Part shown: positions 1,462 to 16,821 of the stretch, one piece after another
Numbering within the stretch: the first letter of the stretch is position 1
Layout of the letters: each line of letters opens with the position of its first letter
Origin: a virus
Lineage: Duplodnaviria; Heunggongvirae; Uroviricota; Caudoviricetes
Direction: 5' to 3' (one strand)
DNA: 16,821 bases
IMG/VR virus record: IMGVR_UViG_2671180758_000023
Notes under the pieces: model-generated
Database searches by the model: none
Told to the model about the DNA's origin: nothing
Seen by the model: the letters and a program-made list of their open reading frames with translations, nothing else
Made by a program: the position numbers and the translations under genes

Positions 1462-1970
1462 ATATGTCCTTTTATCACCACAGCAAGGCAACCCATTGAT
1501 TTAATTAAACAACTCACACTGCAAAAAGTGCTAAAAACAGCAAATTGACTACACCATTAACTACACCGTTCGGTGCACTGTATGAAACAACGTGGAACAA
1601 ATAGACACAAGAAATATACAGGCGGGTAATCTTTCCAGGGGGATGCGCACCAATTCATGAGGGGCGTTAATGTCGATATGGGGATCCCCATAACGGGGCT
1701 ACCGGATTTTTTTCCGGTTAACTGTTAATCAGGCTGGTGGGTTTTACCTGTTCGGTAGGTGTTATGATTATCGTAATACTTTTCCCCCAATGGGGTAAAA
1801 GCATCAACCGTAACGGAAGTCGTTATGGTTGCCTTGATGATCTGCGTGGTCATTATGACCATTCAGTCAATGACCTTAATCAGAGCTTTTCGCTAAAAAT
1901 GACGTTGGCCACGTCATCCGGAAAGCACAAAATCCCATCGATTTTTAATTAACGGTTAAACCGTCTTTTT

Positions 1971-2010
1971 GTCACGTCGTGTCACTGGTTGTCACTCTCC
2001 GTCACGATCT
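1971..2010. repeat. Four direct GTCAC repeats at exact 10-bp phasing (gtcacgtcgt gtcactggtt gtcactctcc gtcacgatct)
   Basis: Read directly in the sequence. Preceded by a small hairpin plus T-run (acggttaaaccgtcttttt). Helical-phase spacing suggests a protein-binding array (arm-type or Xis/Cox-like sites); function unproven. Confidence 0.55.
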
Positions 2011-2033
2011 CCGATAGCCTGGCTGCAAATTAA

Positions 2034-2052
2034 ACTACGAAAATTTCGTAGT
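2034..2052. promoter_or_regulatory. 19-bp perfect palindrome actacgaaaatttcgtagt (operator or terminator-like hairpin) downstream of the PerC-like gene
   Basis: 9-1-9 perfect dyad read directly. About 45 nt 3' of the minus-strand ORF ending at 2098. Followed on the minus strand by a moderately U-rich tract (ttaatttgc). Confidence 0.35.
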
Positions 2053-2097
2053 TCTGGCTTCTTTCAGATAGTCGGTTGCCTGGTTACACGAAAAAAA

Positions 2098-2406
2098 TTA
2101 CTTCCTGCGTTTATCCCGCTTTGTATGTCCGTGCTGAATGCCCCGCAGTGGATCTTCTTTTTTCAGGTCGATCCCCATGTCCGTTAGTGTTTTTGTGGCG
2201 GCGGTTCTTATGGCACAAATCAGGTCTCTTTCCGGTTCCCGGGTTATGGTTGCCTTCCGGATACATGCCGTTCGTCGTTCCGTTACATACTGACGCGCTT
2301 CATCACTTGCCGCCTGTTTCAGTAACTCACCCCAGCGATTAGCCGCCCGTCGCCATAAGCCTTTCGCTTCCAGTTCTTCCGCTTTGTCATCATGCACCAT
2401 AAGCAT
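2098..2406 (-). CDS. PerC-family transcriptional activator-like protein (about 100 aa; start at 2406 or 2400)
   Basis: Motif MVHDDKAEELEAKGLWRRAANRWGELL and C-terminal MGID motif, as in PerC/Pch-family proteins. Paralogous to the ORF at 9833-10105. Weak RBS. Confidence 0.55.
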   Translation of the reverse strand: MLMVHDDKAEELEAKGLWRRAANRWGELLKQAASDEARQYVTERRTACIRKATITREPERDLICAIRTAATKTLTDMGIDLKKEDPLRGIQHGHTKRDKRRK

Positions 2407-2452
2407 AATCCCATTGATACCTGTTAAATCTGAATGGTTGGTTTCTGTTCTT

Positions 2453-2484
2453 TTGATAATTTTCCGTATAGCTTATTGTATGAC
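2453..2484 (+). promoter_or_regulatory. Candidate sigma70 promoter for the plus-strand cargo gene (TTGATA -35, about 17 bp spacer, weak -10)
   Basis: TTGATA at 2453-2458 followed about 17 bp later by TTGTAT/TATGAC, upstream of the AAGGAG RBS at 2501-2506. Pattern match only. Confidence 0.25.
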
Positions 2485-2514
2485 AGTACTGTCCCACAAT
2501 AAGGAGTTGCACGC

Positions 2515-2805
2515 ATGAGAATGACCAGACACAAAAAACAGATCCTTGAACTCTACAAACCTGAGTATCGCGATTGGGTGCGGGTGGAGGCTGGAGATCC
2601 ACCTTTTGATGTTCGTGGTGTTACAGTGCTGCTCTATGGTTCCGAATATCAGCGATATCACATAGAGGCAACACGAAGGACGCTAAACGCTATGGTTCGT
2701 GATAAGTTGCTGGAGCGTGTGAAAGTCCGTGAGCCACGTTTTGATGTGCGTATTGGTGGCGATGGTGCGCATTGCACGGTAATCCGCTATGGCCTGGTAA
2801 GGTAA
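2515..2805 (+). CDS. Hypothetical small protein (96 aa) with an internal tandem repeat; convergent cargo gene
   Basis: Strong RBS AAGGAG 8 nt before ATG 2515. Internal duplication PPFDVRGVTVLLYG / PRFDVRIGGDGAHCTVIRYG. Own hairpin plus T-run terminator downstream. Opposite strand to the rest of the element. No family recognised. Confidence 0.6.
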   Translation: MRMTRHKKQILELYKPEYRDWVRVEAGDPPFDVRGVTVLLYGSEYQRYHIEATRRTLNAMVRDKLLERVKVREPRFDVRIGGDGAHCTVIRYGLVR

Positions 2806-2900: not shown

Positions 2901-2907
2901 CAACTGG

Positions 2908-3189
2908 TTACCGCCGTAACCGCTCCGGCTTCTTCCAGTGGTACGTGATTTTCTCCTTCTCCCGATACATCTCCACGCGGCGACGGTATGCCAGCAACTC
3001 AAGGACTCTGGTTCGTATATTGCGCATATCCGCATCGTTAAGTTCAATACCATCACGGCGCATCACCTCAGCAACAACACGCGCATAATTTTCGGCGGTC
3101 ACGCTGTCCGGCTGCGTGGCCTGTTCGTCATGCTGCTGGCTGATTCCAGAGACGCGGCGGATTAATCGCAGTATTTCGGCTTCTGTCAT
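2908..3189 (-). CDS. Hypothetical protein (93 aa) immediately downstream of the large terminase
   Basis: ATG at 3189 with GAGGT about 9 nt upstream. 13 nt after the TerL stop. Charged, helical-looking sequence. No family recognised. Confidence 0.5.
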   Translation of the reverse strand: MTEAEILRLIRRVSGISQQHDEQATQPDSVTAENYARVVAEVMRRDGIELNDADMRNIRTRVLELLAYRRRVEMYREKEKITYHWKKPERLRR

Positions 3190-3202: not shown

Positions 3203-4864
3203 TTACACCCCGCTAAATTCTTCCAGTTTCTGGCGGTGGCTGTCGCTTATATCAAAAGCAAAATCCTCATGCTCTGCCTGGAATGTACCAAACGCCATCA
3301 GCGCCGCTACGCTCGGGTCTATCTTGTTCGGTGATTTTTTCTTGTTCGGCTTGATATTGGCGTTCGCGTCACTCTGCATCACGACGTTACTCATCGACCA
3401 GGACAACACCGGATCGCCACGATGCACAATCACCCTGCGGTTAACAAAAACTTCGAACGATTTCGCCGCCGGACTGAATCTGAGGTAGGTTTGCGGGAAC
3501 GGCTCCACCTCAAAACCAGCCCCCTGTAATTGCGTCCTGAGATGCGTGGCGTTCCACGTATCAAAGCCCACCAGCCTGATATTAAATTTCTCCGCGTCCT
3601 GCATGATGTCATCTCTGATCCGGTCGTAATCAATGCAGTCACCTGGCGTTGTGCGTATCCAGCCCGCTTTAGCCCACTGGCGATAGACAGCGCGGTTTTT
3701 ATTGGCGGGGTTCTGTAGCTGGAACTCCGGCAGATAATGACGGGAAACCAGCATAATGGTTTTACCTACCGGAAAGGCATAGCACACGCTGGAAATATCG
3801 CTTGTGGATGATAAATCCAGCCCCGCGTAACACTCCTGGCCGTGTAAATCTTCCTCCGTGAACGTTCCGGCACACTCAGCCCATGCGCCGTTACCCATCC
3901 ACGGGGTAGTCCCCTGACACCAGATATTAAATCGCTTTGTCATCATCTCCACCCACTGCGACGGAATACCCCGCGCTTTCTGGATGGTTGAGGCCAGTTT
4001 TTCACGATCCACGGAAACATCGATGTTAGGGTTAGCCTTTATCCACATCGCCGGATCATCAACCTCGTTTTCGTCGTCCAGTTCGTAAATCAGTACAAAA
4101 ATTGAATCGTTGACCTCTTCGCCGTCCAGGATCTGGCAGCAATAATCATAGTGCTGCTTACAGGCTGAAACGACGTTACTGCCCGATGTAGTAATGGCAA
4201 ATAACAGCCCTTCGGGACGTGCGCCCATCCCCAGCTCAAGCGCGGAATAAACGCCGTTATCGGGGTGTAGGTGGTATTCGTCCACGATGGAAAGGCTTGG
4301 GTTTGTGCCCTCGATGGTTGCCGCTTTTGCTGCCAGCGGCTTTAACAGGCTGTTGCTTTTCGGGTGCATCACCTTGTGGGCCTGAATATTCACCCGCCTG
4401 CGTAACGGTCGGGATAAAAGGCACATCTGACGCGCATCATCAAAAACGATCCGCGCCTGGTCACGGCTCACCGCTGCGGTGTAAATATCCTGCTGCCCGT
4501 TCTCCATAATCAGAAACCAGTTAGCCAGAATCGCGGCGGTCGTGGATTTCGCATTTTTGCGTGGCACTTCGATAAAGGCGCTCGTGTATTTGCGCCGTCC
4601 GGTGGCCTTAACCTTAAAGCCGAGGATGCACGCAAAGGCGAACTGCTGCCACGGCTCCAGCTCAATGGGTCTGCCACGCATCGGCCCTTTTACGTGCGGA
4701 CACACCCTGGAAAAGGCAATAAACCGCTCCACAACCTCACGATCGAACGTGTAAAGGGGGCTTTCAAGGTCCGAAAAGTACCGTTTAACGGCCTGTTTCA
4801 GCCGTTTACAGGCCGGAATTTTGCCCGTTTTTACGTCTTCTGCGTACTTATTCCAGGCGGTCAA
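3203..4864 (-). CDS. Terminase large subunit (553 aa), probable TTG start overlapping the terS 3' end
   Basis: Typical TerL N-terminus (MTAWNKYAEDVKTGKIP...) and ATPase/nuclease-like length. First codon in frame is TTG (plus-strand CAA at 4862-4864) preceded by AGGA. Overlaps terS by 17 nt. Confidence 0.9.
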   Translation of the reverse strand: MTAWNKYAEDVKTGKIPACKRLKQAVKRYFSDLESPLYTFDREVVERFIAFSRVCPHVKGPMRGRPIELEPWQQFAFACILGFKVKATGRRKYTSAFIEVPRKNAKSTTAAILANWFLIMENGQQDIYTAAVSRDQARIVFDDARQMCLLSRPLRRRVNIQAHKVMHPKSNSLLKPLAAKAATIEGTNPSLSIVDEYHLHPDNGVYSALELGMGARPEGLLFAITTSGSNVVSACKQHYDYCCQILDGEEVNDSIFVLIYELDDENEVDDPAMWIKANPNIDVSVDREKLASTIQKARGIPSQWVEMMTKRFNIWCQGTTPWMGNGAWAECAGTFTEEDLHGQECYAGLDLSSTSDISSVCYAFPVGKTIMLVSRHYLPEFQLQNPANKNRAVYRQWAKAGWIRTTPGDCIDYDRIRDDIMQDAEKFNIRLVGFDTWNATHLRTQLQGAGFEVEPFPQTYLRFSPAAKSFEVFVNRRVIVHRGDPVLSWSMSNVVMQSDANANIKPNKKKSPNKIDPSVAALMAFGTFQAEHEDFAFDISDSHRQKLEEFSGV

Positions 4865-5204
4865 GCTCGTCCTCTTCTTCTGTTTCCGGTGGATTTTTAC
4901 GGCGGCTTATCGGGTCAAAACCGAGCAAAGAGGCCATTTTTATCATCACTCTTTCAGCGTCGGATTTTGCGCTTAATGCGGGGTTTCTGCTCTCTCCGCC
5001 CTGACTGTTAACAATGCTGAACCCGCGCGCCGCAAGGTCTGCGACGGCTTTCCGGTATATCGAGTAATTGACGCAATACAGTTCCAGATTACTCCAGTCG
5101 GCGGGAGTCAGGTCACCCCGTTCCGCAAGCTGCCGCGATTTTTCCCGCCACTGCTTCACGGCGATATCATCCAGGTAGGCGGGGGCTTTCGGTGGTCTTG
5201 CCAT
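4848..5204 (-). CDS. Terminase small subunit, P27 family (118 aa)
   Basis: MARPPKAP...LELYCVNYSIYRKAVADLAARG pattern typical of P27-family TerS. Position immediately 5' of TerL. Weak RBS. Confidence 0.8.
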   Translation of the reverse strand: MARPPKAPAYLDDIAVKQWREKSRQLAERGDLTPADWSNLELYCVNYSIYRKAVADLAARGFSIVNSQGGESRNPALSAKSDAERVMIKMASLLGFDPISRRKNPPETEEEDELDRLE

Positions 5205-5494
5205 GCTTATTTTTTCGCCAGATTATTTTTCAAAAAATTCCCGTGCATAAAAATTTGAGGAGGCGTTCGGTGCCCGGCGGGGTCGGGTTTGTCCTGAAAA
5301 CGCCCCCCCACCCCGTCATACAGCCTCATCAGCGATTGCGGAAACATTCCATAACCTCGCGGTCACGGTCGGTTAATCGCTTCGCTGTGATGCGTTCTGC
5401 GCGTCCTGACGCTTTATCTTTATGCCCTGTTTCCTGTGTCTTCCATGCGTCACGCTGCCTTATAAGTCCACGGATAAGGCGGTTTTGTTCCCGC
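5205..5494. other. HNH-terS intergenic region; candidate cos/packaging site (G-rich tract tgcccggcggggtcggg at about 5271-5287)
   Basis: 290-bp non-coding gap in an otherwise tightly coupled operon, between an HNH endonuclease and a P27-family TerS, which is the arrangement of cos-type HK97-like phages. The G-rich tract is only loosely similar to lambda cosN (GGGCGGCGACCT). Confidence 0.3.
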
Positions 5495-5935
5495 TCATTC
5501 ATCAGCGTCATACATCCAGTTATTGCGGTTAGCGGCCCGTTCTTCCTCCTCACGGAATCCGCCAGCGGCACGCTTGCTTTTTGTTGCCGGATCAAGCCAC
5601 TTCGTTTTCTGGTTATGACACGCCTGGCACAATGGCTGATGGTTCCATTCGGGCCAGAAGAGAACATCATCACCGCCATTAATCGGGATAATGTGATCCA
5701 CCACCACGGCGGGCGTATATATCCCCTTCTCAAGGCATCGCACGCATAACGGGTTTTTACTCAGATACATGGCGCGGTATTTGTCCCACTGTCTGGAGTA
5801 CCCACGCGCGCGGCGGTGTCCTCGTCTGGCATCCTCTGCACGCCATGCCGCCCGCCTGTGCTCCTCACACTTGCCGGACTTCACGCGCCTGTTACAGCCT
5901 GGTTCTGTGCATCGTCTTAATGGTTGCCACGGCAT
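5495..5935 (-). CDS. HNH endonuclease (146 aa), terminase-associated
   Basis: Cys-rich zinc-finger-like N-terminus (CTEPGCNRRVKSGKCEEH, CVRC) and HNH core (DHIIPINGG...NHQPLCQACHNQK). Start overlaps the connector stop (TGATG). Confidence 0.85.
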   Translation of the reverse strand: MPWQPLRRCTEPGCNRRVKSGKCEEHRRAAWRAEDARRGHRRARGYSRQWDKYRAMYLSKNPLCVRCLEKGIYTPAVVVDHIIPINGGDDVLFWPEWNHQPLCQACHNQKTKWLDPATKSKRAAGGFREEEERAANRNNWMYDADE

Positions 5936-6231
5936 CAGTACACCCCCACATCACGGTAAGCCGTCCAGAGTGCACCAATCGTCATGGGTACGCGTGTTTT
6001 TGCGTTATCCGCGACAATCTGGCGATTTTCATACAGGTGAGCGATAAACATCATGCAGCCAATCTTTATGGCTGGCGTGAACGCCAGCCCGTCATCAAAG
6101 CGCCTGCCTATGTGTATCTGGCACGCCTCAAGCGATGCGGCAATGTATCCGCTGATTAACTGGTCTTCCTCGTCGCCATCGATGCGGCAATGGAGTTTCA
6201 CTTCTTCCAGGGTGATAAGTTCTTCTGTCAT
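5935..6231 (-). CDS. Head-tail connector protein, gp6-like (98 aa)
   Basis: MTEELITLEEVKLHCRIDGDEEDQLISGYIAAS...AHLYENRQ matches the gp6-like connector pattern (LxEVKxHLRID...DxLI). ATGA overlap with the upstream gene. Confidence 0.75.
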   Translation of the reverse strand: MTEELITLEEVKLHCRIDGDEEDQLISGYIAASLEACQIHIGRRFDDGLAFTPAIKIGCMMFIAHLYENRQIVADNAKTRVPMTIGALWTAYRDVGVY

Positions 6232-6566
6232 TTTTCCGCGCCCTCACGACAAAGAATTTCAAGGCGTGTCCTGGCGGCATCCGGCAGCGGCTGCCCGATG
6301 ATATTCAGTACACGCCCCGCCAGCGGCCCCGTATTGACCTTTATCCGGCTGGTGGCGTTGATGTCCTTCCTGTAGCGTATCCATATCCTTACCGTTCCAG
6401 TCGCCAGTTCTGCACCCGATGAAATGGCCTCCTTGCTGCTGATCATGTTCACGCTTGCCCAGAGTGTGTGACCGTCCACCCACGTTTCGAGTATTTCGCC
6501 GGTTATATCCCTGGTCTGTTTCAGGGTCTGAATCGTTACCCTGTCACGCAGTCGCCCTATGTTCAT
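6228..6566 (-). CDS. Head closure / head-tail joining protein (112 aa from ATG 6566; ORF extends to 6608)
   Basis: GRLRDRVTIQ...TWVDGHTLWASV...VRIWIRYRKDI...RIKV matches the head-closure family pattern. ATG at 6566 forms an ATGA overlap with the portal stop. An alternative ATG lies at 6608. Confidence 0.7.
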   Translation of the reverse strand: MNIGRLRDRVTIQTLKQTRDITGEILETWVDGHTLWASVNMISSKEAISSGAELATGTVRIWIRYRKDINATSRIKVNTGPLAGRVLNIIGQPLPDAARTRLEILCREGAEK

Positions 6567-7774
6567 TCCGGTTTTTCTCCCTCGCTGATTTTTACTTCCT
6601 GTTTCCATGCCTGGCTGAACTCATCACCACCATCACGCGGGGACAGCCCTTCACGTTCGCGGGCTTCGTTCGGGCACATAACGCCGGATTTGATGCCGCG
6701 TTCATAGGTGGCAAAGCGTTCGCCAGGTGTGGCCCGTAACAGGTCCGCGCTGTCAAACTCCACCTGATACCGGATACCAGGTACAGGTGAGGCCACCAGC
6801 AGGGCGTTTTTTATCTGCTGCTCAAAGTTCGCCAGCCACGGGCGCATCGTCATGGTGAGAAATGCGCGGCTTGCCTCGCTGAAATTGCTGTAGGTGCTGT
6901 TGCTGTATTCCTGCAAAAAAATCGGCGAGACGTTGAACATTCGGGCGATGTCTTCAATGGTGAAGCGACGGGAGGCCAGCCATTCAGCATCCTGATTACT
7001 CATGCCCAGCTGCTGATAGCTCATACCCCCTTCAAGGATGGGCGTTTTTCCGGCGTTTCTGGCCCCTTTGTAGCGTTCCAGTGCGGCTAATGCCTGTTTG
7101 CCCTTCACGCCGTCCAGCCATTCGCCTGACGTGATAACCCCTGCCGCCATCATGCCATCACGCATCACGCTCGCGCCGTGGCGTTGTTGGGCCAGCCCAA
7201 GCCCCAGCGATTCGCGGCAGATGGTTACAGGTGAGCGCCCCATAAAACCGTCATCCGTGGAGTAACGAAGGTGGAGAACCTCCCACGGTAAATAGTTGCG
7301 GGTGTTTCCGGTGTAGGCGTCAGTGATGCAGTAGCGCCAGTTATGCTCACCTGTCTGCTCCACGTTCACCGACTGCGGCGGGTAAGGATGCAAAGCCACC
7401 GGAAAACCATCACGCCCCCACTGAATCACCGCATAAGCATTACCGTTTAACAGGCAGTGGCGGATCATCATTCGCTTAAACTGGTAGGGGGTTTGCCATG
7501 CGTTCGGGCGCTCGTTGAGGATGTGATCGACCGGATGAGAATCAAGCCACTCTCGGGCCTCCTTCCCCTTCTCATTGCGTACCAGGTACAGGTAACACGG
7601 CATGGTAGCCACCGCCTCAGAGATGACCGTGACGGCGTTCATGACGGCGGGCAGTGATTCCGCTGTCCCCGATGATACGTACTCACCCGCCCCCGTGTTC
7701 GATGTGCCGGCCAGCGCCATAAACTCATCAAGCGTCATGCTGCGCTGCTCTTTTTTTCTTCTGAAAGGCCACAT
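6563..7774 (-). CDS. Portal protein, HK97 family (403 aa)
   Basis: Length and sequence pattern typical of HK97-family portals. RBS GGGGGTG 7 nt before ATG 7774. Sits between the protease and head-closure genes. Confidence 0.9.
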   Translation of the reverse strand: MWPFRRKKEQRSMTLDEFMALAGTSNTGAGEYVSSGTAESLPAVMNAVTVISEAVATMPCYLYLVRNEKGKEAREWLDSHPVDHILNERPNAWQTPYQFKRMMIRHCLLNGNAYAVIQWGRDGFPVALHPYPPQSVNVEQTGEHNWRYCITDAYTGNTRNYLPWEVLHLRYSTDDGFMGRSPVTICRESLGLGLAQQRHGASVMRDGMMAAGVITSGEWLDGVKGKQALAALERYKGARNAGKTPILEGGMSYQQLGMSNQDAEWLASRRFTIEDIARMFNVSPIFLQEYSNSTYSNFSEASRAFLTMTMRPWLANFEQQIKNALLVASPVPGIRYQVEFDSADLLRATPGERFATYERGIKSGVMCPNEAREREGLSPRDGGDEFSQAWKQEVKISEGEKPE

Positions 7775-7775
7775 A

Positions 7776-8348
7776 TCACACCCCCGCTAAATCCGCCCAC
7801 CAGCGGCGATTATCCGCACGCGGCATTTTTTCGGGGTGCTGCTCGTACAGGGAGCGGCGGGCCAGCTCCACGCCGGAATCAGGGTAAGCCGGTACGGATG
7901 TAACGGTAATTTCGTATAGTTCCGCCACCAGCACGGTGCGCACGCATGGATCTGTTGTGGTATCCCATACATCCTTACGGGAACGAAAGCCAAAGCTCAT
8001 GCCGGATATATCACCTCGTTTAACCAGTTCGATAACGTCGCGCCCTGTACTGGTATCCGGTGGGGTCAGTTCAAAGCGTAACCCTGTTTCGTCCTCTTCC
8101 AGTTTCAGCGTGCCGGAACGGGTGCGCCCCAGTAACATGCTGTGGTCATGCTCATACAGGCCGCGAACGTCATTACCCGCCGCAAGCCACTCAGTAAACG
8201 CCCCCCGCTGGAATTTTTCGTAAAACTCCCCCCATAGCAGTTCTGAAAGCTTATCCCAGCGAACAACGTAGCCCGTCAGCGTACCGGCTCCGCTGGTAGT
8301 GATTTCCGATGACCGGATTTCCATACTCTTCATAATTTTTTCACCCAT
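7776..8348 (-). CDS. Prohead maturation protease, HK97 family (about 180-190 aa)
   Basis: Conserved pattern GYVVRWDKLSE...GLYEHDH...LGRTRSGTL...ISGMSFGF typical of HK97 prohead protease. Start may be ATG 8348 or the downstream ATG at 8333. Confidence 0.85.
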   Translation of the reverse strand: MGEKIMKSMEIRSSEITTSGAGTLTGYVVRWDKLSELLWGEFYEKFQRGAFTEWLAAGNDVRGLYEHDHSMLLGRTRSGTLKLEEDETGLRFELTPPDTSTGRDVIELVKRGDISGMSFGFRSRKDVWDTTTDPCVRTVLVAELYEITVTSVPAYPDSGVELARRSLYEQHPEKMPRADNRRWWADLAGV

Positions 8349-9545: not shown

Positions 9546-9634
9546 AAAAAAAGTCCTGGGGTTAAGTAAGGAACTCCAGGACGCGGCAAACACTCAACCG
9601 TTTTTCATAAGGAAATCAGTAATCGCACCGATCG

Positions 9635-9684
9635 TTTTCCCGCCTGGTAATGAATATTGGCGAGCACATTAACAGGCGGGAAAA
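9635..9684. promoter_or_regulatory. Large imperfect inverted repeat (18-14-18: ttttcccgcctggtaatg ... cattaacaggcgggaaaa) in the capsid-operon leader
   Basis: Read directly; the arms match at 17 of 18 positions. Lies 90-140 nt upstream of the capsid ATG on the transcribed strand. No adjacent U-tract, so more likely an operator or leader structure than a terminator. Confidence 0.4.
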
Positions 9685-9689
9685 TGGCC

Positions 9690-9800
9690 CCAGCGTCCTG
9701 GCACCACGGGCGAGAATAATCATGATTCAGGTCGGGTAAAATATGCCGTTCCGGTCAGCGAGCAACGTGGAACAACCACGAACAAATAATTTACAAAACA
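9690..9800 (-). promoter_or_regulatory. Candidate late (capsid-operon) promoter region containing the 13-bp motif CAACGTGGAACAA (9763-9775) and TTGCTC-N16-TATTTT on the minus strand
   Basis: Only sizeable non-coding gap upstream of the head operon. The motif is repeated at 1588-1600 with conserved flanking ACCGRAACGG. Promoter hexamers are a by-eye match. Confidence 0.35.
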
Positions 9801-9826
9801 TGACAAAAAGCCGGATTGCTCCGGCT
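9801..9826 (-). terminator. Rho-independent terminator after the PerC-like gene (hairpin agccgga-ttgc-tccggct followed by a U-run on the minus strand)
   Basis: 7-bp GC-rich stem with 4-nt loop at 9809-9826. Five A on the plus strand (9805-9809) equal a U-run 3' of the hairpin on the minus strand. 7 nt after the stop at 9833. Confidence 0.6.
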
Positions 9827-9832
9827 GTGTGA

Positions 9833-10105
9833 TTATCTGTCCTGGTAATTTCGCCATATTTCATCGCTTACACCATCTATACCCATTTCAGCATAAGTGC
9901 GATCTACTGCCTTTCTCAGGTCTCCGAAGTTATCCGGCGGCTCCGGTGGCTTCTGTGCCTTCCTGGAACATTCCAGCCGTCGCATCGTAACCTGATGCCG
10001 TTCCTTGTCTGTCTCCACCAGCAGCATGACTTCACCCCATCGCGCCGCCGCCCTCCGGTAAAAGCCTTTCGCCTCGAGTTCTTCCGCTATGCGGTCATGT
10101 ACCAT
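9833..10105 (-). CDS. PerC-family transcriptional activator-like protein (90 aa from ATG 10105; ORF track extends to a GTG at 10225)
   Basis: MVHDRIAEELEAKGFYRRAAARWGEV and C-terminal MGIDGV motif. GAGGGGG RBS 5 nt before ATG 10105. Last gene of the early/replication operon before the terminator. Confidence 0.6.
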   Translation of the reverse strand: MVHDRIAEELEAKGFYRRAAARWGEVMLLVETDKERHQVTMRRLECSRKAQKPPEPPDNFGDLRKAVDRTYAEMGIDGVSDEIWRNYQDR

Positions 10106-10115: not shown

Positions 10116-10526
10116 TCAGAACGGAATACCGTCACCGTAAGGGTCATCGCCTCCCGCTGGTGGCTGATTACCCTGTGTGCCTGTGGTTTTGCGTCTGTTC
10201 CCGCCAGGACGTGCCGCACGGGCACTGATTACGCTGTCTGCAATAACCTGATAACCCTGCCGCGTTTCCCCGTTCTGTCCGGTCCACTGGCTGACCTGCA
10301 TCGTGCCGGATACGCTGGCAACGTCGCCTTTTTGATGTTTAGCCAGGAAGTCGGCCTGCTTACCAAATGCGATGACCGATAGCCATAACGTAGCCTGCCC
10401 ATCCTGCGCCTGACTACATGGCAACGATACCGCCATACGTGCCAGCGTCATTGGTGTGCCCTTGCTGGTCTGTTTTACCTGCGGGTCGTCCACCAGCCGC
10501 CCGTAAGCTGCTATCTGTGCTGTCAT
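10116..10526 (-). CDS. ssb: Single-stranded DNA-binding protein (136 aa)
   Basis: OB-fold-like N-terminal region, Gly/Gln-rich linker and C-terminal acidic tail ending DDPYGDGIPF (SSB DDDIPF-type tip). Strong RBS GGAGAGGTGG. ATGA overlap with the upstream ORF. Confidence 0.8.
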   Translation of the reverse strand: MTAQIAAYGRLVDDPQVKQTSKGTPMTLARMAVSLPCSQAQDGQATLWLSVIAFGKQADFLAKHQKGDVASVSGTMQVSQWTGQNGETRQGYQVIADSVISARAARPGGNRRKTTGTQGNQPPAGGDDPYGDGIPF

Positions 10527-10774
10527 GATTCCACCTCTCCGGTTTTAACGTTGATGGTTGTCACCTGTTCAGCTTCCGCAATCTCCCGCTCTGTCAGCGT
10601 GGCAAAATTTGCCGCCGTCGTGGTCATGAATGCGCTTATCAGTTCGGGATGTGCTTTCGCGTATCCTTCCCCCGCGTGGCGGTCTATCGTTCTGATTGCC
10701 ACCTTTAAGGCGTGCTCTGTCATGTCTAACGCTTTATATTTTGGCTCTGTTCTGTCTCTGTGTTTTTGAGTCAT
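10523..10774 (-). CDS. Hypothetical small protein (83 aa from ATG 10774; ORF track extends to a GTG at 10906)
   Basis: GAGGTGGG RBS before ATG 10774. The ORF portion upstream of 10774 coincides with the iteron array, so it is probably non-coding. Confidence 0.45.
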   Translation of the reverse strand: MTQKHRDRTEPKYKALDMTEHALKVAIRTIDRHAGEGYAKAHPELISAFMTTTAANFATLTEREIAEAEQVTTINVKTGEVES

Positions 10775-10777: not shown

Positions 10778-10985
10778 CCCACCTCTACCCACTTTTTTCG
10801 CCCACTTTTTACGTTTTCCCACTTCGTCCAACGTGGGAAATTTGGGATTTATATCATCTTGTTTCATAGGTATTTTTTTAGTGCCCACTTTTTGGGATAT
10901 ATACACGTGGGAAAGTGGGTAATTTTGTTAAAATTCCGTTAAATCGCCCACCTTTCCCACTTTTAATGCCCACTTTTTACAGTGG
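10778..10985. repeat. Iteron array (about 10 copies of CCCACTT(TT), both orientations) flanking an AT-rich core; candidate replication origin
   Basis: Copies at 10778, 10788, 10801, 10818, 10884, 10947, 10956 and 10969, with inverted copies at 10833-10838 and 10907-10919. AT-rich spacer at 10838-10883. Immediately 3' of the replication ATPase gene, as in PICI/SaPI origins. Confidence 0.55.
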
Positions 10986-12377
10986 TCCTACATCATCACC
11001 GTCAATGTAGATCACGTCGTCTTTTTCCAGTTTGGCTAACCATCGTTTAAGGTGTTTTGTGTCATACCCCAGCTTTTTCATATCGTCACGTAACAGCGGG
11101 ATCGTGCACTTGTCGCCGTGCTGTGTGCGTGAACGTATGCATCCCCATAGCGCGGTATGGTTTTCCGTCTTGTTCCCTGCCTCCTCGATGCGCTCCAGTT
11201 CAACAGGAGGGCGCGGATCATCCACCACCACCAGCGACGTGATTAATTCACCGTCAGCGTCGGTAAAAAGCTCCACCACGCGTAAGTCATATGCGGCTTC
11301 TTTGAGTTCCTCCGCGTCCTTCATTTTGGTGCATGAGATAACCAGCGCTTCGCTTCCTGCGTCCTCCCTGCGTATCCGGTATTCAGCATCCAGCGAAGCA
11401 CGAAATGCACTGGAACCGCGCGCGCCTTTCGTCTCATCCTTGCCGGAATGGTGAACCACCAGCACCGTGGCCCCTGTGCGTCGTTTCAGTTCGTCACAAC
11501 CACGGATAAACGCCCCCATATCACGGGAATCATTTTCATCATTCCCACCAAAGCAACGCGCCAGCGTATCCAGAATAATCATGCGTACAGGTTTACCCGT
11601 TTCCCGCTCCACCTGACGGGCAGCGATAACCATTTCATCAACATCAAGCGGGGCAGCCGGAAAGATGGGGCGGTTTACCAGATACAGATTTTTCACCTGC
11701 TCATCGTGCACAACCTCCCAGGCTTTTACACGACGCGGAACACCTATACCGCCTTCACCAACCACATAGAGAACCGCACCATGTGCAACCCTGCGGCCTC
11801 CCCACTGGCGACCAGTGGCAACATGGCACGCCCACGATCCGGCAAGGAATGATTTATAGGACCCGCTAGCCCCGTATATGCTGCATAGCGATACCGCCGG
11901 AATAATCCCCTTAACCACGTAATCCAGTTGCGTGTCGTATCCGGTAGATCCAACGCTCATCGGTAGCGTGGTTTTTCGCTGGTGGTTTTTTTCTTCCGCC
12001 GGCTCTTTCCCGCGCACCCGTTCCAGGTATTCGCGCCAGTTCTCCCGCATATGGCTGTGCATCCCTTCGGGGTAATAATTCGCATCAGTTACACCCGCCG
12101 CCGCCAGCTTGTGCGCAATGGCATTAATATTTGATGGCCTGATGTGGCCTGCCTTGTACAGCCGGACACAATAGCGCCCCTCGTCGATGATTCTCAGGTC
12201 TGCCAGTTCATCCAGTTGATCATCAGCCAGCACAACGGGAGGCACATTATCGCCAGCCAGTCGCCCGTCCTGTTCCTGCCACTGTTTCGCATGTGCCCAG
12301 GCATCACTACCCGCAAAAATAATGACTTCGGTCATCTTGTCGTAAGGCTGTTTTTTTAAGTTCGGTGCGCTTTTCAT
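10977..12377 (-). CDS. Replication protein, RecA-fold ATPase (RepA/AAA_25-like helicase, pri-rep analogue), 466 aa
   Basis: Walker A-like YGASGSYKS, Walker B-like VRMIILDTLARCF, and VLVVHHSGKD motif typical of RepA-like helicase ATPases. Unassigned N-terminal domain and a C-terminal winged-helix-like tail. A canonical primase domain is not evident by eye. Confidence 0.8.
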   Translation of the reverse strand: MKSAPNLKKQPYDKMTEVIIFAGSDAWAHAKQWQEQDGRLAGDNVPPVVLADDQLDELADLRIIDEGRYCVRLYKAGHIRPSNINAIAHKLAAAGVTDANYYPEGMHSHMRENWREYLERVRGKEPAEEKNHQRKTTLPMSVGSTGYDTQLDYVVKGIIPAVSLCSIYGASGSYKSFLAGSWACHVATGRQWGGRRVAHGAVLYVVGEGGIGVPRRVKAWEVVHDEQVKNLYLVNRPIFPAAPLDVDEMVIAARQVERETGKPVRMIILDTLARCFGGNDENDSRDMGAFIRGCDELKRRTGATVLVVHHSGKDETKGARGSSAFRASLDAEYRIRREDAGSEALVISCTKMKDAEELKEAAYDLRVVELFTDADGELITSLVVVDDPRPPVELERIEEAGNKTENHTALWGCIRSRTQHGDKCTIPLLRDDMKKLGYDTKHLKRWLAKLEKDDVIYIDGDDVGPL

Positions 12378-12673
12378 TTCTTGCCCCTGAATCCGTTAAT
12401 CATGGTTTTCAGCTTCTGGATGTTTGCCCGTGCCCTGGCGTTGCTGGTGGGCACGTTATGCGGCGCGGTCTGTACCAGAGAAAAATCACGCCGGAACTGA
12501 TAAACAGGCATCACGCAATCATATTCGTAACCTTCACGGCGGTAAGTTACGCACCGTCCCGCCACGCCCTTAATCATTACCGTGCCGCCGTACTGGTCGC
12601 GGTAAATATCACCGCGCGTAAATTTAGGGTGAGTGTTGCCACTGGCAGTTAAGCCAGAATATTTAAGTTTCAT
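12374..12673 (-). CDS. Hypothetical protein (99 aa)
   Basis: ATG with GGAGA RBS. ATGA overlap with the replication gene start. No family recognised. Confidence 0.5.
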   Translation of the reverse strand: MKLKYSGLTASGNTHPKFTRGDIYRDQYGGTVMIKGVAGRCVTYRREGYEYDCVMPVYQFRRDFSLVQTAPHNVPTSNARARANIQKLKTMINGFRGKK

Positions 12674-12678
12674 TATTT

Positions 12679-12912
12679 TTATTCTCCGGTGTGCTGTTCT
12701 TTATATCTGTCGTGCAATAGATCTATTTCTTGCAGTTCCATTATTACAGGCTCAAGAAGCGTTATTAATGCCGTGGCAATTCTTGATTTTTGTTTGTCGC
12801 GTTCATTGTCGCCAAGTGTTTCAAGCCATATGCGCAATATTTCCAGCATGTTTTCACTGTGAGAAAGTGCAAGAAATGCGCGGTCTATTGTTTGGTGGTA
12901 AATATCACGCAT
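12679..12912 (-). CDS. Hypothetical protein (77 aa)
   Basis: ATG 12912 with GAGGA RBS. 5-nt gap to the next gene. No family recognised. Confidence 0.5.
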   Translation of the reverse strand: MRDIYHQTIDRAFLALSHSENMLEILRIWLETLGDNERDKQKSRIATALITLLEPVIMELQEIDLLHDRYKEQHTGE

Positions 12913-13369
12913 GGCTTACATCCTCAGGAAATTTTCTTCTATAACGCGCCTCTGCCACATATTCCGCATAATCGGCGGCGATATTCAGTACATCAAGCCC
13001 CGTTGATTTATATTCTCTCGTGGAAAGTAAGAAAAAAGCCGCTCTAATAAGTTCTGGCATTGACGAAAGCGCATCAGCCGCATCATCAGGAACGCCGGAA
13101 AATTCCTGTTTCAGGGAATTAAAACGATCATCACGCATAACCCCCCCATTTTCACAATCAGCAATCAGGATAGCTTTGGCCTCATTCAGCGCCGTATCAG
13201 CACTAAATTGCATGACAGCCAGTGAGTGAGGAACGAAAGCACCGGCATATTCTGTTTCGCTGGTGGCGTGCTTATGTGCCCTGTCCGCGATAACAGAAAT
13301 ATCAATCAGCGCGTGCATCAGCGTTTTGATGGCTTCGGCGGCTGCGTCCGGTGTGGTTTTATTGTGCAT
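12905..13369 (-). CDS. Hypothetical protein (154 aa)
   Basis: ATG 13369 with AGGGGA RBS. Acidic, helical-looking. Overlaps neighbours by a few nt. No family recognised. Confidence 0.55.
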   Translation of the reverse strand: MHNKTTPDAAAEAIKTLMHALIDISVIADRAHKHATSETEYAGAFVPHSLAVMQFSADTALNEAKAILIADCENGGVMRDDRFNSLKQEFSGVPDDAADALSSMPELIRAAFFLLSTREYKSTGLDVLNIAADYAEYVAEARYRRKFPEDVSHA

Positions 13370-13571
13370 AAAGCATCCCCTGAATATTCGTGTTAATCAT
13401 TCCGGCACGTTTTGTGATTTCCTGTAATGATTCCCTTGTGGCGACAATTGCTTCATCTGGTAAGTGGTAATTACACACCACGCGACCTTTATCCACATTG
13501 ACCAGTAGCTGCCCTGTGAATTTCTCACGAAACTGAATGCGGTTAAGGTCAGTAAGTGACAGATTAATCAT
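13359..13571 (-). CDS. Hypothetical protein (70 aa)
   Basis: ORF in the coupled operon; overlaps the upstream gene by 8 nt. No family recognised. Confidence 0.5.
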   Translation of the reverse strand: MINLSLTDLNRIQFREKFTGQLLVNVDKGRVVCNYHLPDEAIVATRESLQEITKRAGMINTNIQGMLYAQ

Positions 13572-13767
13572 GGCGCACCTCCTGACGAATACGGGCAGCG
13601 AATACCATCACGCAGCCAGCCGGAGATTGCTGGCGTGCTTCCTGTTCGCTGGTGGCCTCAATGGTAATCACGCGCGGTTGTGCCGTGCTCAGGGCGATAA
13701 AACGCCAGATGTATTTATTCAGGTTGTGCGAGTCCCGCCCTTGCGGGTGTGTGGTATTATTTCTCAT
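13564..13767 (-). CDS. Small protein (67 aa) resembling Icd-like (host cell division inhibitor-like) proteins of P4-family elements
   Basis: GAGG RBS 5 nt before ATG 13767. Motifs YIWRF, IEATSEQEAR and FAARIRQEV recall P4-family Icd-like proteins (from memory, not searched). First gene after the divergent promoter region. Confidence 0.45.
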   Translation of the reverse strand: MRNNTTHPQGRDSHNLNKYIWRFIALSTAQPRVITIEATSEQEARQQSPAGCVMVFAARIRQEVRHD

Positions 13768-13802
13768 AGCTACCTCGATACTCTCGTTATCGTTGGTGGT
13801 TA

Positions 13803-13837
13803 GAAGCCCCGTTACTGCTCCAACAGTGCGGGGCTTC
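13803..13837 (-). ncRNA. Leader stem-loop (gaagccccg ... cggggcttc, 9-bp stem, 17-nt loop) in the 5' UTR of the early operon
   Basis: Dyad read directly. Lies between the predicted minus-strand promoter and the Icd-like start codon. Not followed by a U-run. Confidence 0.3.
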
Positions 13838-13874
13838 GTCGTTTCAATTGCTGAATTGCATGTATCAGCACTTG

Positions 13875-13929
13875 TGGTATTCACATTACATTTAGGTGAA
13901 TACCATTTCAAGTCTTTTTTGGTATTCAC
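13875..13929. promoter_or_regulatory. Operator array in the divergent switch region: three copies of TGGTATTCAC (two form a 10-11-10 palindrome), overlapping back-to-back promoters
   Basis: Copies at 13875-13884, 13896-13905 (inverted) and 13920-13929. Minus-strand promoter candidate TTGAAA (13906-13911), 17-bp spacer, TAATGT (13883-13888) overlaps copies 1 and 2. Plus-strand -10 candidate TATTAC (13935-13940) lies just after copy 3. Confidence 0.45.
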
Positions 13930-13972
13930 TTTTGTATTACACTGCATCCCGTTATTAATGGGAGGTGCAAAC

Positions 13973-14278
13973 ATGTCCAGGAGTTCTGTTAACAATAAGT
14001 CACAGCAACTGAATGCCAGATTTCCACATGAAGTAGTGAGTGGCATTGAGGCATCCCTACAGCCAGGGGAAACTAAAGCGAATTTTATAGTTACGGCTGT
14101 ACGCGGTGAGATCGCCCGGCGCCAGGCAGAAGGAAGTGGAGAAAATCCCCTGGTTTCTTCGCTCGATGCACTGGCGCAGGTGGAAAAACTCGGAATCAAA
14201 GCCGCCGAGGAGATCGGGCAGCTCGTCACTGTCGCACGTGAAGAACTCCAGCGCCGCAAGACCAAAGAACCAGAGTAA
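13973..14278 (+). CDS. Ribbon-helix-helix-like DNA-binding protein (101 aa); candidate repressor/regulator of the switch
   Basis: Strong RBS GGGAGGTG 5 nt before ATG 13973. N-terminal beta-strand-helix-helix pattern (LNARFPHEVVSGIEASL...ANFIVTAVRGEIARRQ). Divergent from the early operon. Followed by a clear intrinsic terminator. Confidence 0.6.
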   Translation: MSRSSVNNKSQQLNARFPHEVVSGIEASLQPGETKANFIVTAVRGEIARRQAEGSGENPLVSSLDALAQVEKLGIKAAEEIGQLVTVAREELQRRKTKEPE

Positions 14279-14335
14279 TCACCATCAGCGCCGTGGTGTA
14301 AGGTATTACGGCGCATTGCTATGCAGGACAACACA

Positions 14336-14509
14336 ATGACCGATAAAGAATTGACCAAAACATTATCACCGGCACGGAAAAGACGGCGCAGAAAGATAGA
14401 GCATGAATCAGAAAGATTCGCGCCATGTGCTTTTGCCCTTGAGCAATTCCTTAAAGAGTACAGGGAAAAGCGCTCATTGCAGGTATGGCAACGAACTGAA
14501 CCAGACTGA
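14336..14509 (+). CDS. Hypothetical small basic protein (57 aa)
   Basis: AGGA 8 nt before ATG 14336. Basic patch RKRRRRK. Same transcription unit as the RHH gene, ending before the terminator at 14589. Confidence 0.4.
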   Translation: MTDKELTKTLSPARKRRRRKIEHESERFAPCAFALEQFLKEYREKRSLQVWQRTEPD

Positions 14510-14588
14510 TTGCATTGCCCACCAGCCGCAAATGTGGCATTGTTGGCAATGCTCATGCGTTGGGGATAACGTGTAGCTTGTGTCGAGG

Positions 14589-14617
14589 GGCCACCGTAGC
14601 GGGTGGCCTTTGTTTTG
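14589..14617 (+). terminator. Rho-independent terminator (ggccacc-gtagcg-ggtggcc followed by TTTGTTTTG)
   Basis: Perfect 7-bp GC-rich stem, 6-nt loop and U-run, about 80 nt after the stop of the plus-strand operon. Confidence 0.7.
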
Positions 14618-14985
14618 CCCGTTATTCGGCAATTGTGGCGCTTCTCCACATGGTTGATATAATCCCACTGCTCAGATTCATTTTTTGCGCAGTAGGTTAA
14701 TTGTTCACAAAGGCGCTCCGGCAACGGGGCGCTTTTTGTTTTTATTAGTTTGTAGAAACCTGACTCAGAGATAATGCTCATATTCTGATTGCCGTCAGGG
14801 GTGTAAGTTAAATTTACTCCCTTTTTATCATCAAACATCTGCAACGCTCTGGCGTTAACAATATTGGTTTCACTCCCGCCAGTAAGGCCGGAAATAACCG
14901 GAATAATTTCGGCAAAATTTTGCAGATTCTGTTTTTCAGGACGAACGAAGCCCCGCCCTTGTTCGGGAGAATATCCAGTATTCAT
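14618..14985 (-). pseudogene. Bro-N-like antirepressor N-terminal domain, probably a gene remnant (no in-frame stop before running antisense through the plus-strand operon)
   Basis: Residues DDKKGVNLTYTPDGNQNMSIISESGFYKLIKTKSAPLPERL align to the Bro-N pattern (DEDEKGV...GG.Q...IISE.GLY.LI..S..P.A..F). Weak RBS. The frame stays open for 473 codons to 13564, but the middle section is Ser/Cys/Arg-rich antisense of a well-supported plus-strand gene. Confidence 0.3.
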
Positions 14986-15037
14986 GGTTAGATCTCTGTA
15001 TTAGTGGATGGGTGGCGGCTGTGTGCCGCCAGCCTGA

Positions 15038-15226
15038 TTAGTGAACTGCCTCGCAGCTGTCCTTCCATGCCAGAACTTCGGATAAAGACCAGCCAACGGA
15101 ACGACCGCCCAGCTTACGCCGTGATGGGAATTGTCCGGCTTTTTCCAGGCGGTACCGACATGAGCGGCTCAGGCCTGTAAGTTGCTGACATTCTTTTTCA
15201 CGTATAAAGCGATCTGTGCTTAACAC
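15038..15226 (-). CDS. alpA: AlpA-family transcriptional regulator / excisionase-like protein (about 62 aa, GTG start)
   Basis: Motif QLTGLSRSCRYRLEKAGQFPSRRKLGGRSVGWSLSEVLAWK matches the AlpA winged-helix pattern. AAGGGGG RBS 4 nt before GTG at 15226. Confidence 0.8.
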   Translation of the reverse strand: MLSTDRFIREKECQQLTGLSRSCRYRLEKAGQFPSRRKLGGRSVGWSLSEVLAWKDSCEAVH

Positions 15227-15256
15227 AATTCCCCCTTTGTTGTTTCTTAAAGAGTC

Positions 15257-15310
15257 ATTGGGTGGATTATTGGGTTGGGTTGTGTCGGATTGTGTCAGGG
15301 TGTTTGTGGA
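15257..15310. repeat. Degenerate direct repeats with about 10-bp period (ttgggtgg, tgggttgggt, tgtgtcggat, tgtgtcaggg, tgtttgtgga) immediately upstream of alpA
   Basis: Read directly. Lies in the alpA 5' region on the transcribed strand. Function unknown. Confidence 0.4.
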
Positions 15311-15510
15311 ATGGCAAACACTGGCGGCGGTCGTTTTACAGAAGCAGGGGGAATGAGAATAAAAACTCTTTTAATTCATTATGATGCAAAGGCATAAAAT
15401 TTTACTTTTACGCCTTTTTTACATATTTTTAAGAGTGATTCGCCAGTGTATAAAAAAACAGTACACCTATAAAAATCAAATGGTTATTACGATGGCTGAT
15501 TTTTAACCCG

Positions 15511-15570
15511 TTGTTCCATTTTGTTCCTTGTTGTTCGTCGTTGTGTCTCGTTGTTTCACGTTGTCCGCAT
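15511..15570. repeat. Six tandem 10-bp-phased repeats (ttgttccatt ttgttccttg ttgttcgtcg ttgtgtctcg ttgtttcacg ttgtccgcat) just 3' of the integrase gene
   Basis: Read directly; every 10-mer starts with TTGT. Exact helical phasing over 60 bp. Shares the GAACAA/CAACG core with the late-promoter motif (reverse complement). Confidence 0.55.
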
Positions 15571-15591
15571 CCTGAAAAATCGCAAAAAAAA

Positions 15592-16821
15592 TTATATTTC
15601 TCTGGCTATTGGCAATGTGGTTACGTTTTCATGTGTTCCCGCCAGTATCCCTAACCGCTCCGTCCACATATCCAGCGCGTCACGTTTCGCATCCAGATAA
15701 CGGGAATGGTTATAGACTCGTTGCATCCCTGGCATCTGATGACCTGTAAGCTGCTCCACGACGTGAGGATCCACGCCTAAATCGTTCAGCATCGTTGTAA
15801 AGGTGCGCCGGATGTCATGCAGTGACCAGTGAGGGTGTTTTAGCCTCCTGTGCGCTAATCTGCCGTACTGCGACACGCTTGTTTCCTGTTTCAATTCCCC
15901 CAGCAATAAGCCCGTGTGCCTGTTCTGCTCCACCAGCTGCGTGACGAACGGCAGTATTGCTTCCGGTATGGGCCGGAATATTGCCACCTTCGTTTTGCTG
16001 TGTTCTTTCGGCACGGTCCAGAGCATTTCGGTAAAATCCCACTCGCTGATCTCCGATAACCTCAGTTCTACCGTCCGGCATCCGAAAACAATCAGGAGGC
16101 GGATTAGTGCGACGTAGTAAGGGGAAAATATTTTTTTGTCCAGTGCCTGCAATAATTCGCCAAGTTCTTTGGTGCTTAAGACACGCTCGCTTATATCCGG
16201 TTTTTTCCCAACGTCCGCCACACTCATATCATCAAGAACGTTGCTGATTGCATAGCGCCGCCTCCGGCAGAACTTAAGCGCCTGTTTGCACGTCTGTAGC
16301 AAGAATCCGGCAGTAACAGGCGTTCGCTTTGCCACCTGGTCAAAACAGGCCAGCCAGTGCCGTAGCTCGCATTTATCCAGCGGCATAGCACCAATGTGCT
16401 GTATTACGTGATTATTAAGGCGCTTTTTCAGGGCGGCATAATCCACGCGGTTTTCCTTTACGTAAGACTCAAGCCAGTAGGTAAGCGCATCGCCAACCGT
16501 TACGGGCTTTAACGCTTTCTGTACGGTGTAATTCATCTCATGACGTGGATTTTTCCCCTCAGCAAGCCAAGCGCGACACTGTGCCGCTTTTTCCCTGGCA
16601 GCTTTCAGACTCAGATCAGGATAATTTCCCAGCTTAATCCGTTCCGGTCGTGCTCCCCTTCCCGTTCCGGCCCTGTAGGTGAAATACCAGGTTAAAAGGC
16701 CGCTGGTTGAATGCCTGACGCTCAGGTTTCCACCGTCATTAAGAAAAGCTGTTTTTTGGGCGGGTGTGCCGTTGATTTTCCTCAGCTGTGTATCGCTCAG
16801 TTTGTTAAGTGCTCTGCTCAT
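15592..16821 (-). CDS. Tyrosine integrase, P4-type (409 aa); start codon at the window edge
   Basis: N-terminal arm-binding-like domain (LSDTQLRKINGTPAQKTAFLNDGGNLSVRHSTSGLLTWYFTYR) and catalytic motifs (HDIRRTF, C-terminal Y in GMQRVYNHSRY). ATG at 16819-16821. Confidence 0.9.
   Translation of the reverse strand: MSRALNKLSDTQLRKINGTPAQKTAFLNDGGNLSVRHSTSGLLTWYFTYRAGTGRGARPERIKLGNYPDLSLKAAREKAAQCRAWLAEGKNPRHEMNYTVQKALKPVTVGDALTYWLESYVKENRVDYAALKKRLNNHVIQHIGAMPLDKCELRHWLACFDQVAKRTPVTAGFLLQTCKQALKFCRRRRYAISNVLDDMSVADVGKKPDISERVLSTKELGELLQALDKKIFSPYYVALIRLLIVFGCRTVELRLSEISEWDFTEMLWTVPKEHSKTKVAIFRPIPEAILPFVTQLVEQNRHTGLLLGELKQETSVSQYGRLAHRRLKHPHWSLHDIRRTFTTMLNDLGVDPHVVEQLTGHQMPGMQRVYNHSRYLDAKRDALDMWTERLGILAGTHENVTTLPIAREI

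Follow-up and report, generated by a model that had tools for sequence, protein, structure and literature searches.

A probable capsid-forming phage-inducible chromosomal island of the EcCIEDL933 lineage integrated next to phoQ

Introduction

Phage-inducible chromosomal islands that form capsids (cf-PICIs) are phage satellites that build their own capsids and take only tails from a helper phage. Here we describe a 16,821-nucleotide stretch of DNA, IMG/VR record IMGVR_UViG_2671180758_000023 (hereafter the window), which begins with the bacterial gene phoQ and continues into an island of this type. A genome survey recorded 969 cf-PICIs, 13% of Enterobacteriaceae genomes having the complete form (Type A), and the SatelliteFinder model derived for the family comprises 11 core components, with tail genes and holins as forbidden ones (de Sousa et al. 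2023, PMC10085698).

The closest described system is the prototype EcCIEDL933 of Escherichia coli O157:H7 EDL933. Its induction requires alpA together with a helper phage (HK106 or HK446), and mutation of alpA abolishes both induction and transfer. Mutants in its packaging genes lose transfer while the helper is unaffected, and the island is still transferred by helper capsid mutants but not by helper tail mutants. By the same authors' analysis no phage genome has more than 6 homologues in common with it (Alqurainy et al., bioRxiv 10.1101/2022.09.08.507074). The EcCIEDL933 capsid has been modelled by cryo-electron microscopy (PDB 9GYI) as a 47.5 nm shell of triangulation number T=4, suited to a 15.5 kbp genome. 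Tail-less heads are released and join the tails of different phages, with the adaptor and connector setting the choice of tail (He et al., bioRxiv 10.1101/2025.02.11.637232).

Results

One island spans the window from position 1467 to its end, with nearly all genes on the minus strand (Table 1). Its gene content, gene order and insertion site indicate that it is very probably an integrated cf-PICI of the EcCIEDL933 lineage, inserted right after the phoQ stop codon. Compared protein by protein with EcCIEDL933, which has the same attB (phoQ-roxA) and the same gene order, the major capsid protein and small terminase (TerS) were 100% identical, and the other head and packaging proteins and the integrase were 94 to 99% identical, all with unchanged lengths. 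The island is therefore an already known kind of element, a close relative of EcCIEDL933, and its novelty is low. All 5,426 complete E. coli genomes matched the phoQ end of the window, and 56 of them carried most of it. Comparison loci are cited below by number: L001 is E. coli O157:H7 F6321 (NZ_CP038369.1), L003 is strain RM9088, L005 is EDL933 and L017 is LR881103.1.

All 11 core components of the cf-PICI model were present, as judged by gene matches in Pfam, PHROGs and NCBIfam rather than by SatelliteFinder's own profiles. These are a P4-type integrase, an AlpA regulator (MerR or Stl being accepted in its place), the island's own major capsid protein, prohead protease, portal, adaptor, connector, HNH endonuclease, TerS and large terminase (TerL), and a primase-replicase component, filled here by a RepA/AAA_25 protein with adjacent iterons and in the prototype by a DUF927 protein. 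The forbidden tail and holin components were not found. Searches of Pfam, PHROGs, NCBIfam and PADLOC with the open reading frames (ORFs) of both strands, long shadow ORFs included, gave no match to families of tail, tape-measure, baseplate or fibre proteins, of holins or endolysins, or of CI/Cro regulators. The longest stretch without an assigned gene is ~630 bp (1467-2097), and a tail, lysis or CI/Cro gene would not fit.

An earlier note on this DNA, made from the sequence without database searches, had listed the same gene classes, and all were present where it placed them (by Pfam, with the Icd-like part recovered through NCBIfam NF033153). Profile hidden Markov models returned every member of the HK97-type head and packaging set that it had named (capsid, protease, portal, head closure, connector, HNH, TerS and TerL), while Pfam and motif counts confirmed its replication set of RecA-fold Rep ATPase, iteron origin and single-stranded DNA-binding protein (SSB), together with AlpA. 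As it had also stated, no tail, lysis or CI/Cro genes were found, and too little space is left to hold them. Its picture of a satellite that builds its own capsid and takes only helper tails gains support from the near identity to EcCIEDL933, which suggests that this copy would behave likewise. The feature that it had thought most worth a second look, AlpA, Icd-like and PerC regulation combined with an HK97-type head, is instead the published definition and normal make-up of the cf-PICI family, and is therefore not a new combination.

Nothing in the window sequence contradicts assignment to the cf-PICIs, although several observations weigh against it to some degree. Downstream of alpA, the Ant-like gene has been truncated and now forms part of a long open frame, and the replication ATPase is of another kind than the DUF927 protein with which the prototype was tested. 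The adaptor differs from that of EDL933 at 7 of 112 residues, and therefore helper and tail specificity may differ from those of the prototype. In addition, attR and the last ~0.2 kb of the island lie beyond the window, the cos site is a predicted one, and so is the function of this copy.

Head genes of this kind belong to phage families, and the visible truncation of one gene after alpA could be read as decay, so we considered whether the island is a cryptic HK97-like prophage that has lost its tail, lysis and immunity genes and has no life cycle of its own. We regard this as very unlikely. Profile scans found neither tail, lysis or CI/Cro immunity modules nor remnants of them; the packaging ORFs are all intact and match those of the mobile prototype in length; the left boundary, and the right one as seen in the O157:H7 copy, are precise att junctions that leave no surplus sequence; and size is held at ~15.5 kb across variants. 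The regulatory and replication half is moreover of PICI type rather than lambdoid, and the low number of homologues that the prototype shares with any phage genome points the same way. An autonomous temperate phage, small and with tail and lysis genes too divergent to recognise, would account for the several small ORFs without assigned function. These encode only 57 to 154 amino acids (aa), however, and the free space noted above is far too little for a tail module, while the prototype requires helper tail genes; we give this explanation hardly any credence.

The integrase, alpA, Icd-like region, PerC and DUF4222 genes are all common to classical E. coli PICIs, which leaves the idea of a classical PICI or P4-like satellite that redirects helper capsid proteins and carries its head genes as unused cargo. 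The model of classical PICIs forbids portal, adaptor and connector, and the island has all three. Pfam, PHROGs and NCBIfam searches matched no ORF to sid, psu, delta, a P4 alpha-type primase or another capsid-remodelling family. The solved capsid of a satellite is formed by a protein identical to the one encoded here, and in the prototype mutations in head and packaging genes abolish transfer. This reading is extremely improbable, and a cf-PICI of the EcCIEDL933 lineage remains the explanation that we prefer.

The boundaries of this cf-PICI were placed by aligning the empty K-12 site, where phoQ and roxA are 75 bp apart, with attL and the O157:H7 attR. The left junction falls at 1466/1467. Both O157:H7 islands, F6321 and EDL933, sit between phoQ and roxA, with roxA directly after the integrase, and in F6321 the right junction is TGATAAAATATG, 178 bp past the integrase start codon. 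Past 16821 we therefore expect ~180 bp, then TGATAAAATATG, then CCCATACTTCACGC and roxA. The F6321 island measures 15,587 bp (L001 5467-21053), and by the same measure the window island is estimated at ~15,533 bp. The earlier note had placed the element between phoQ and a terminal integrase, with a span of ~15.3 kb; the junction is now corrected, and the full island is estimated to be somewhat longer (~15.53 kb) with attR lying past the integrase start. A tRNA scan of the window found none, and thus the att site of the island is not a tRNA gene.

The note had also proposed to find attR as a direct repeat of sequence in 1462-1600. A 75-nt imperfect repeat at 1543-1617 does recur at the other end, as seen in the O157:H7 copy, but it lies within the opposite island end and is therefore an arm-type repeat rather than the att core, which is short and overlaps the phoQ stop codon. 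As a candidate att site this repeat was ruled out by the empty K-12 site, with both of its copies inside the island. Runs of ACAA at a 10-nt period were seen at four places (1587-1616, 9762-9790, 15505-15564 and the O157:H7 attR arm, L001 20931-20970); shuffled sequence gave 0.007 such runs per sequence. These arrays may be bound by AlpA or by the integrase through its arm-binding domain. The ~400 bp that separate the attL arm from the cargo (1600-2008) held no convincing gene and no Rfam match, and this segment is common to the O157:H7 copy.

At the attL end, window positions 2009-2906 (898 bp) replace 59 bp of F6321 in blastn comparison. Despite this net gain of 839 bp in cargo, the two islands differ in length by 54 bp, since three losses elsewhere make up for the gain. 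One of these lies where F6321 has a 27-nt direct repeat on either side (L001 12972 and 13326). The near-constant size would fit a limit set by the small T=4 capsid. The cargo consists of a second PerC-family gene and a 96-aa gene. The latter had no family match in Pfam, PHROGs, NCBIfam or PADLOC, and PADLOC gave no defence-system match for the cargo or the small genes. The same module ends the non-capsid PICI of strain RM9088 (L003 18039-18746), and 48 complete E. coli genomes have it, with different satellites carrying it at their end. Gram-negative PICIs commonly have PerC genes.

The replication segment carries an array of the word CCCACYT, of which the whole window has 10 copies (3.5 expected by chance), 9 of them immediately 3' of repA. 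The Rep proteins of the window and F6321 (L001 14815-16212) are 94% identical, with differences mainly in the C-terminal ~60 aa, and the iteron word in F6321 is CTCCCCAC (L001 14630-14816). This joint change of Rep C-terminus and iteron word suggests that initiator and origin may have matched specificity. The RepA/AAA_25 protein (466 aa) and the DUF927 protein of EcCIEDL933 (710 aa; L005 4139-6271) are alike only over their N-terminal ~122 aa (67% identity) and have unrelated ATPase bodies, as if the replication engine had been exchanged at the level of domains.

Within the packaging module, the linear record deposited as 'Escherichia phage vB_KppS-Ant' (LR881103.1) starts 22 nt before terS, and the G-rich motif at which it ends has a homologue in the window, upstream of terS. 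For this reason the cos site probably lies in 5205-5328. The region upstream of the capsid operon (9546-9832), with its hairpin and ACAA-type repeat, may have a regulatory role. The G+C fraction of the island is uneven, ranging from 0.43 to 0.59 per 500-nt bin, compared to 0.49-0.52 for phoQ.

Downstream of alpA, the window has an open frame of 473 codons that runs opposite a short unit with a YlcI/YnfO-type ribbon-helix-helix (RHH) gene. Across 13564-14985 this frame contains no stop codon, whereas the two alternative frames of the minus strand have 28 and 32. The N-terminal ~50 residues correspond to the beginning of an AntA/AntB antirepressor (84% identity to Ant of RM9088), the middle ~270 residues are rich in Cys, Ser and Arg without a family match, and the end is Icd-like. 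Annotations of the region by the Prokaryotic Genome Annotation Pipeline conflict: a 94-aa Icd-like protein in F6321, a 247-aa hypothetical protein in EDL933, and 'Icd-like' proteins of 385-540 aa in many genomes. A protein database search with the long frame returned more than 100 clusters of 385-540 aa at 60-99% identity, mostly named 'Icd-like' by NCBI. Because this list is biased to long proteins, one genome per species was searched with the Icd-like part alone. The loci compared were window 13564-14985, L001 17762-19039, L003 31462-32508, L006-L016 and L017 8578-9552.

Nine of ten uncut loci, from nine other genera or species, keep 148-331 codons open upstream of the Icd-like part, while neighbouring frames in those loci have 0.057 stops per codon. 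We rejected the possibility that the 473-codon frame is a chance shadow of the opposite-strand genes on these counts. All nine open-frame loci carry a small opposite-strand RHH-type ORF with coinciding third codon positions; a YlcI/YnfO gene in a lambdoid prophage has no such antisense frame. In the 8 loci examined the stop codon of the upstream gene lies 1 to 14 nt downstream of the first start codon of the long frame, and in a ninth it lies 12 nt before that start. ATGA or GTGA overlaps occur at the start in three loci, and GGAGG precedes it by a few bases in 4 of 8. Between genera, amino-acid conservation is confined to the Icd-like end and a short N-terminal motif. An AlphaFold2 model of the long frame with 49 relatives had a mean predicted local distance difference test score of 29, with only the Icd-like end reaching ~50-57, and is uninformative because the alignment was shallow.

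It is possible, though we hold this only tentatively, that the long frame (~250-470 codons) is translationally coupled to the upstream gene, is kept open by selection, and is paired with the opposite RHH gene as a switch ahead of the replication and packaging genes. Ribosomes on the long frame would shield the transcript beginning at alpA against premature termination, and the convergent RHH transcript or protein would shut that transcript off. As a hypothesis, the frame must be translated although its sequence hardly matters, and this would fit an anti-termination role with the RHH unit as a brake. The c4/icd/ant region of P1 and the CI/kil region of P4 are comparisons for such a switch. Scanned against Rfam with E values up to 0.1 allowed, the complete window had no match to an RNA family, which gives no support for a c4- or CI-type RNA. 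In a literature search for Icd-like and YlcI/YnfO, the names appeared only as gene-list entries, and no paper was found that described the long-frame idea.

Table 1. Features of the window, in order of position (strand "." denotes no orientation; identities to EDL933 are between proteins)
Feature	Position	Strand	Evidence
phoQ, chromosomal flank outside the island	1..1461	+	PhoQ annotation in matching O157:H7 and K-12 loci
attL crossover core ATGAATAAATATG, ~13 bp, containing the phoQ stop codon	1454..1466	.	Empty K-12 site aligned with attL and O157:H7 attR
Arm-type repeats: two copies of ACTACACC (1548-1567) and ACAA three times with a 10-nt period (1587-1616)	1543..1617	+	75-nt imperfect direct repeat; motif counts against shuffles
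Second PerC-family gene, in cargo absent from the F6321 copy	2098..2406	-	Pfam PerC E 5e-23; blastn insertion map
96-aa cargo gene, hypothetical in RM9088; terminator-like hairpin follows at 2874-2891	2515..2805	+	ORF
93-aa conserved gene after terL, no assigned role	2908..3189	-	phrog_1561 E 2e-56; 87% identical to last island gene of EDL933
TerL, large terminase	3203..4864	-	Pfam ATPase and nuclease domains, E 2e-50; 98% identical to EDL933
TerS, small terminase, P27 type	4848..5204	-	Pfam Terminase_4; 100% identical to EDL933
Candidate cos region, G-rich motif GGGGTGGGGGGGCGTTTTCAGGAC ending at 5291 (5291-5314)	5205..5328	-	Predicted from position between HNH block and terS
60-aa packaging-module gene, conserved	5329..5511	-	phrog_3173 E 8e-37; annotated in both O157:H7 copies
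HNH endonuclease	5495..5935	-	Pfam HNH; 99% identical to EDL933
gp6-like head-tail connector	5935..6231	-	Pfam Phage_connect_1; 99% identical to EDL933
Head closure / head-tail adaptor	6228..6566	-	Pfam Phage_HCP; PDB 2KZ4 'putative head-tail adaptor' E 1e-67; 94% identical to EDL933
Portal	6563..7774	-	Pfam Phage_portal E 9e-91; 99% identical to EDL933
Prohead serine protease S78	7776..8348	-	Pfam Peptidase_S78; 98% identical to EDL933
Major capsid protein, HK97 fold, 385 aa	8388..9545	-	Pfam E 3e-61; 100% over 385 residues to PDB 9GYI
Capsid-operon upstream region: terminator-like hairpin after perC (~9806-9826), ACAA-type repeat (9762-9790)	9546..9832	-	Sequence; motif search
PerC-family regulator, conserved copy	9833..10105	-	Pfam PerC E 5e-45
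SSB	10116..10526	-	Pfam SSB
83-aa conserved gene, no assigned role	10523..10774	-	phrog_1231 E 2e-51
Iteron array, putative replication origin	10778..10975	.	9 CCCACYT copies in ~200 bp
RepA-type replication ATPase (AAA_25, RecA fold), 466 aa	10977..12377	-	Pfam AAA_25 E 4e-44; 94% identical to F6321 copy
DUF4222 gene (12374-12673) and three small conserved genes (77, 154 and 70 aa)	12374..13571	-	Pfam; PHROGs 2196, 2512, 340
Long open frame, 473 codons: Ant/Bro-N fragment, unconserved middle, last 94 aa Icd-like (13564-13848)	13564..14985	-	NCBIfam NF033153, PHROGs
Opposite-strand unit in the long frame: YlcI/YnfO-type RHH gene (13970-14278), 57-aa gene (14336-14509)	13970..14509	+	NF041551 E 1e-16; phrog_6522 E 2e-45, phrog_21027
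Strong terminator-like hairpin, 12-bp stem then T run, that would end the plus-strand unit	14709..14746	+	Sequence
AlpA	15038..15226	-	Pfam Phage_AlpA E 3e-18
ACAA array of six units with a 10-nt period, flanked by alpA and the stop codon of int	15505..15564	-	Motif search against shuffles
P4-type tyrosine integrase; window ends at its start codon	15592..16821	-	Pfam Arm-DNA-bind_3 and Phage_integrase; 98% identical to EDL933

Discussion

Because its parts are near identical to those of EcCIEDL933, the life cycle demonstrated for the prototype can be proposed for the window copy. A helper siphophage would trigger expression of alpA, and AlpA and the integrase would excise the island, which would then be replicated by RepA and SSB from the iteron origin. 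The island's own capsid protein, protease and portal would form a small T=4 procapsid. Its HNH endonuclease, TerS and TerL would then fill this with a single 15.5 kb genome, cutting probably at a cos site immediately upstream of terS. The adaptor and connector would finish the head, and tail-less heads would be freed when the helper lyses the cell. Such a head would join a compatible phage tail and inject its DNA, which would integrate at the phoQ-roxA attB.

The window adds one further mosaic copy to a satellite family that has already been described genetically, structurally and in genome surveys. It indicates that at least two unrelated replication ATPases can accompany the capsid module, and that such islands carry PerC-type regulators as cargo in relatives of Shiga-toxin-producing E. 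coli strains. While modules swap, the islands stay at ~15.5 kb, consistent with a T=4 capsid limit. The long-frame observation could point to the way in which Gram-negative PICIs are silenced and switched on.

Among more distant systems, HK97-like phages and the Rhodobacter gene transfer agent (RcGTA) use the same fold families for capsid, portal, protease and terminase but are distant in sequence. The RcGTA capsid (6TSU) was the next-best solved capsid match (E 3e-46), and its portal is 6TE9. These phages and RcGTA encode their own tails, whereas the window has no tail match. The HK97 shell is T=7 and cross-linked, while that of the prototype cf-PICI is T=4 and without cross-links (He et al., bioRxiv 10.1101/2025.02.11.637232). 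P4 has a P4-type integrase, an AlpA-type regulator and helper dependence in common with the window's family, but it uses the helper capsid protein, and its sid, psu, delta and alpha primase were not found in the window.

Classical Gram-negative PICIs (EcCICFT073 type, including that of RM9088, next to smrA/abgR) share int, alpA, Ant, the opposite-strand YlcI/YnfO-type gene, the Icd-like part, DUF4222 and PerC with the window, and the RM9088 PICI also has the same PerC/96-aa cargo module. No capsid, portal, protease, connector or TerL genes are annotated in the RM9088 PICI, and classical PICIs are packaged in helper-made capsids. Another cf-PICI is vB_KppS-Ant, a 16.5 kb record deposited as a phage, which has the cf-PICI gene order and a 325-aa frame ending in an Icd-like part. 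That part is only 44% identical to the window, and the record has another primase and other cargo. Its cargo position after terL is occupied by a 765-aa gene annotated as a tape measure protein (L017 2036-4333); if this label is right, the record would be an exception to the tail-less rule.

The closest relatives are the O157:H7 islands. The F6321 island, together with 55 other complete E. coli genomes, has 96.6% DNA identity over 90% of the window, and shares with it the RepA-type replicon, the phoQ-roxA site and the fused long frame after alpA. F6321 has two small genes absent from the window, the window has the PerC/96-aa cargo absent from F6321, and the window segment 13138-14248 is mosaic relative to F6321. 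EcCIEDL933 shares the site, gene order and capsid, and differs in its replication protein, in the region after alpA and in the extra cargo at 2009-2906 (mapped against F6321). The window copy is a mosaic variant of this well-described satellite at a known site.

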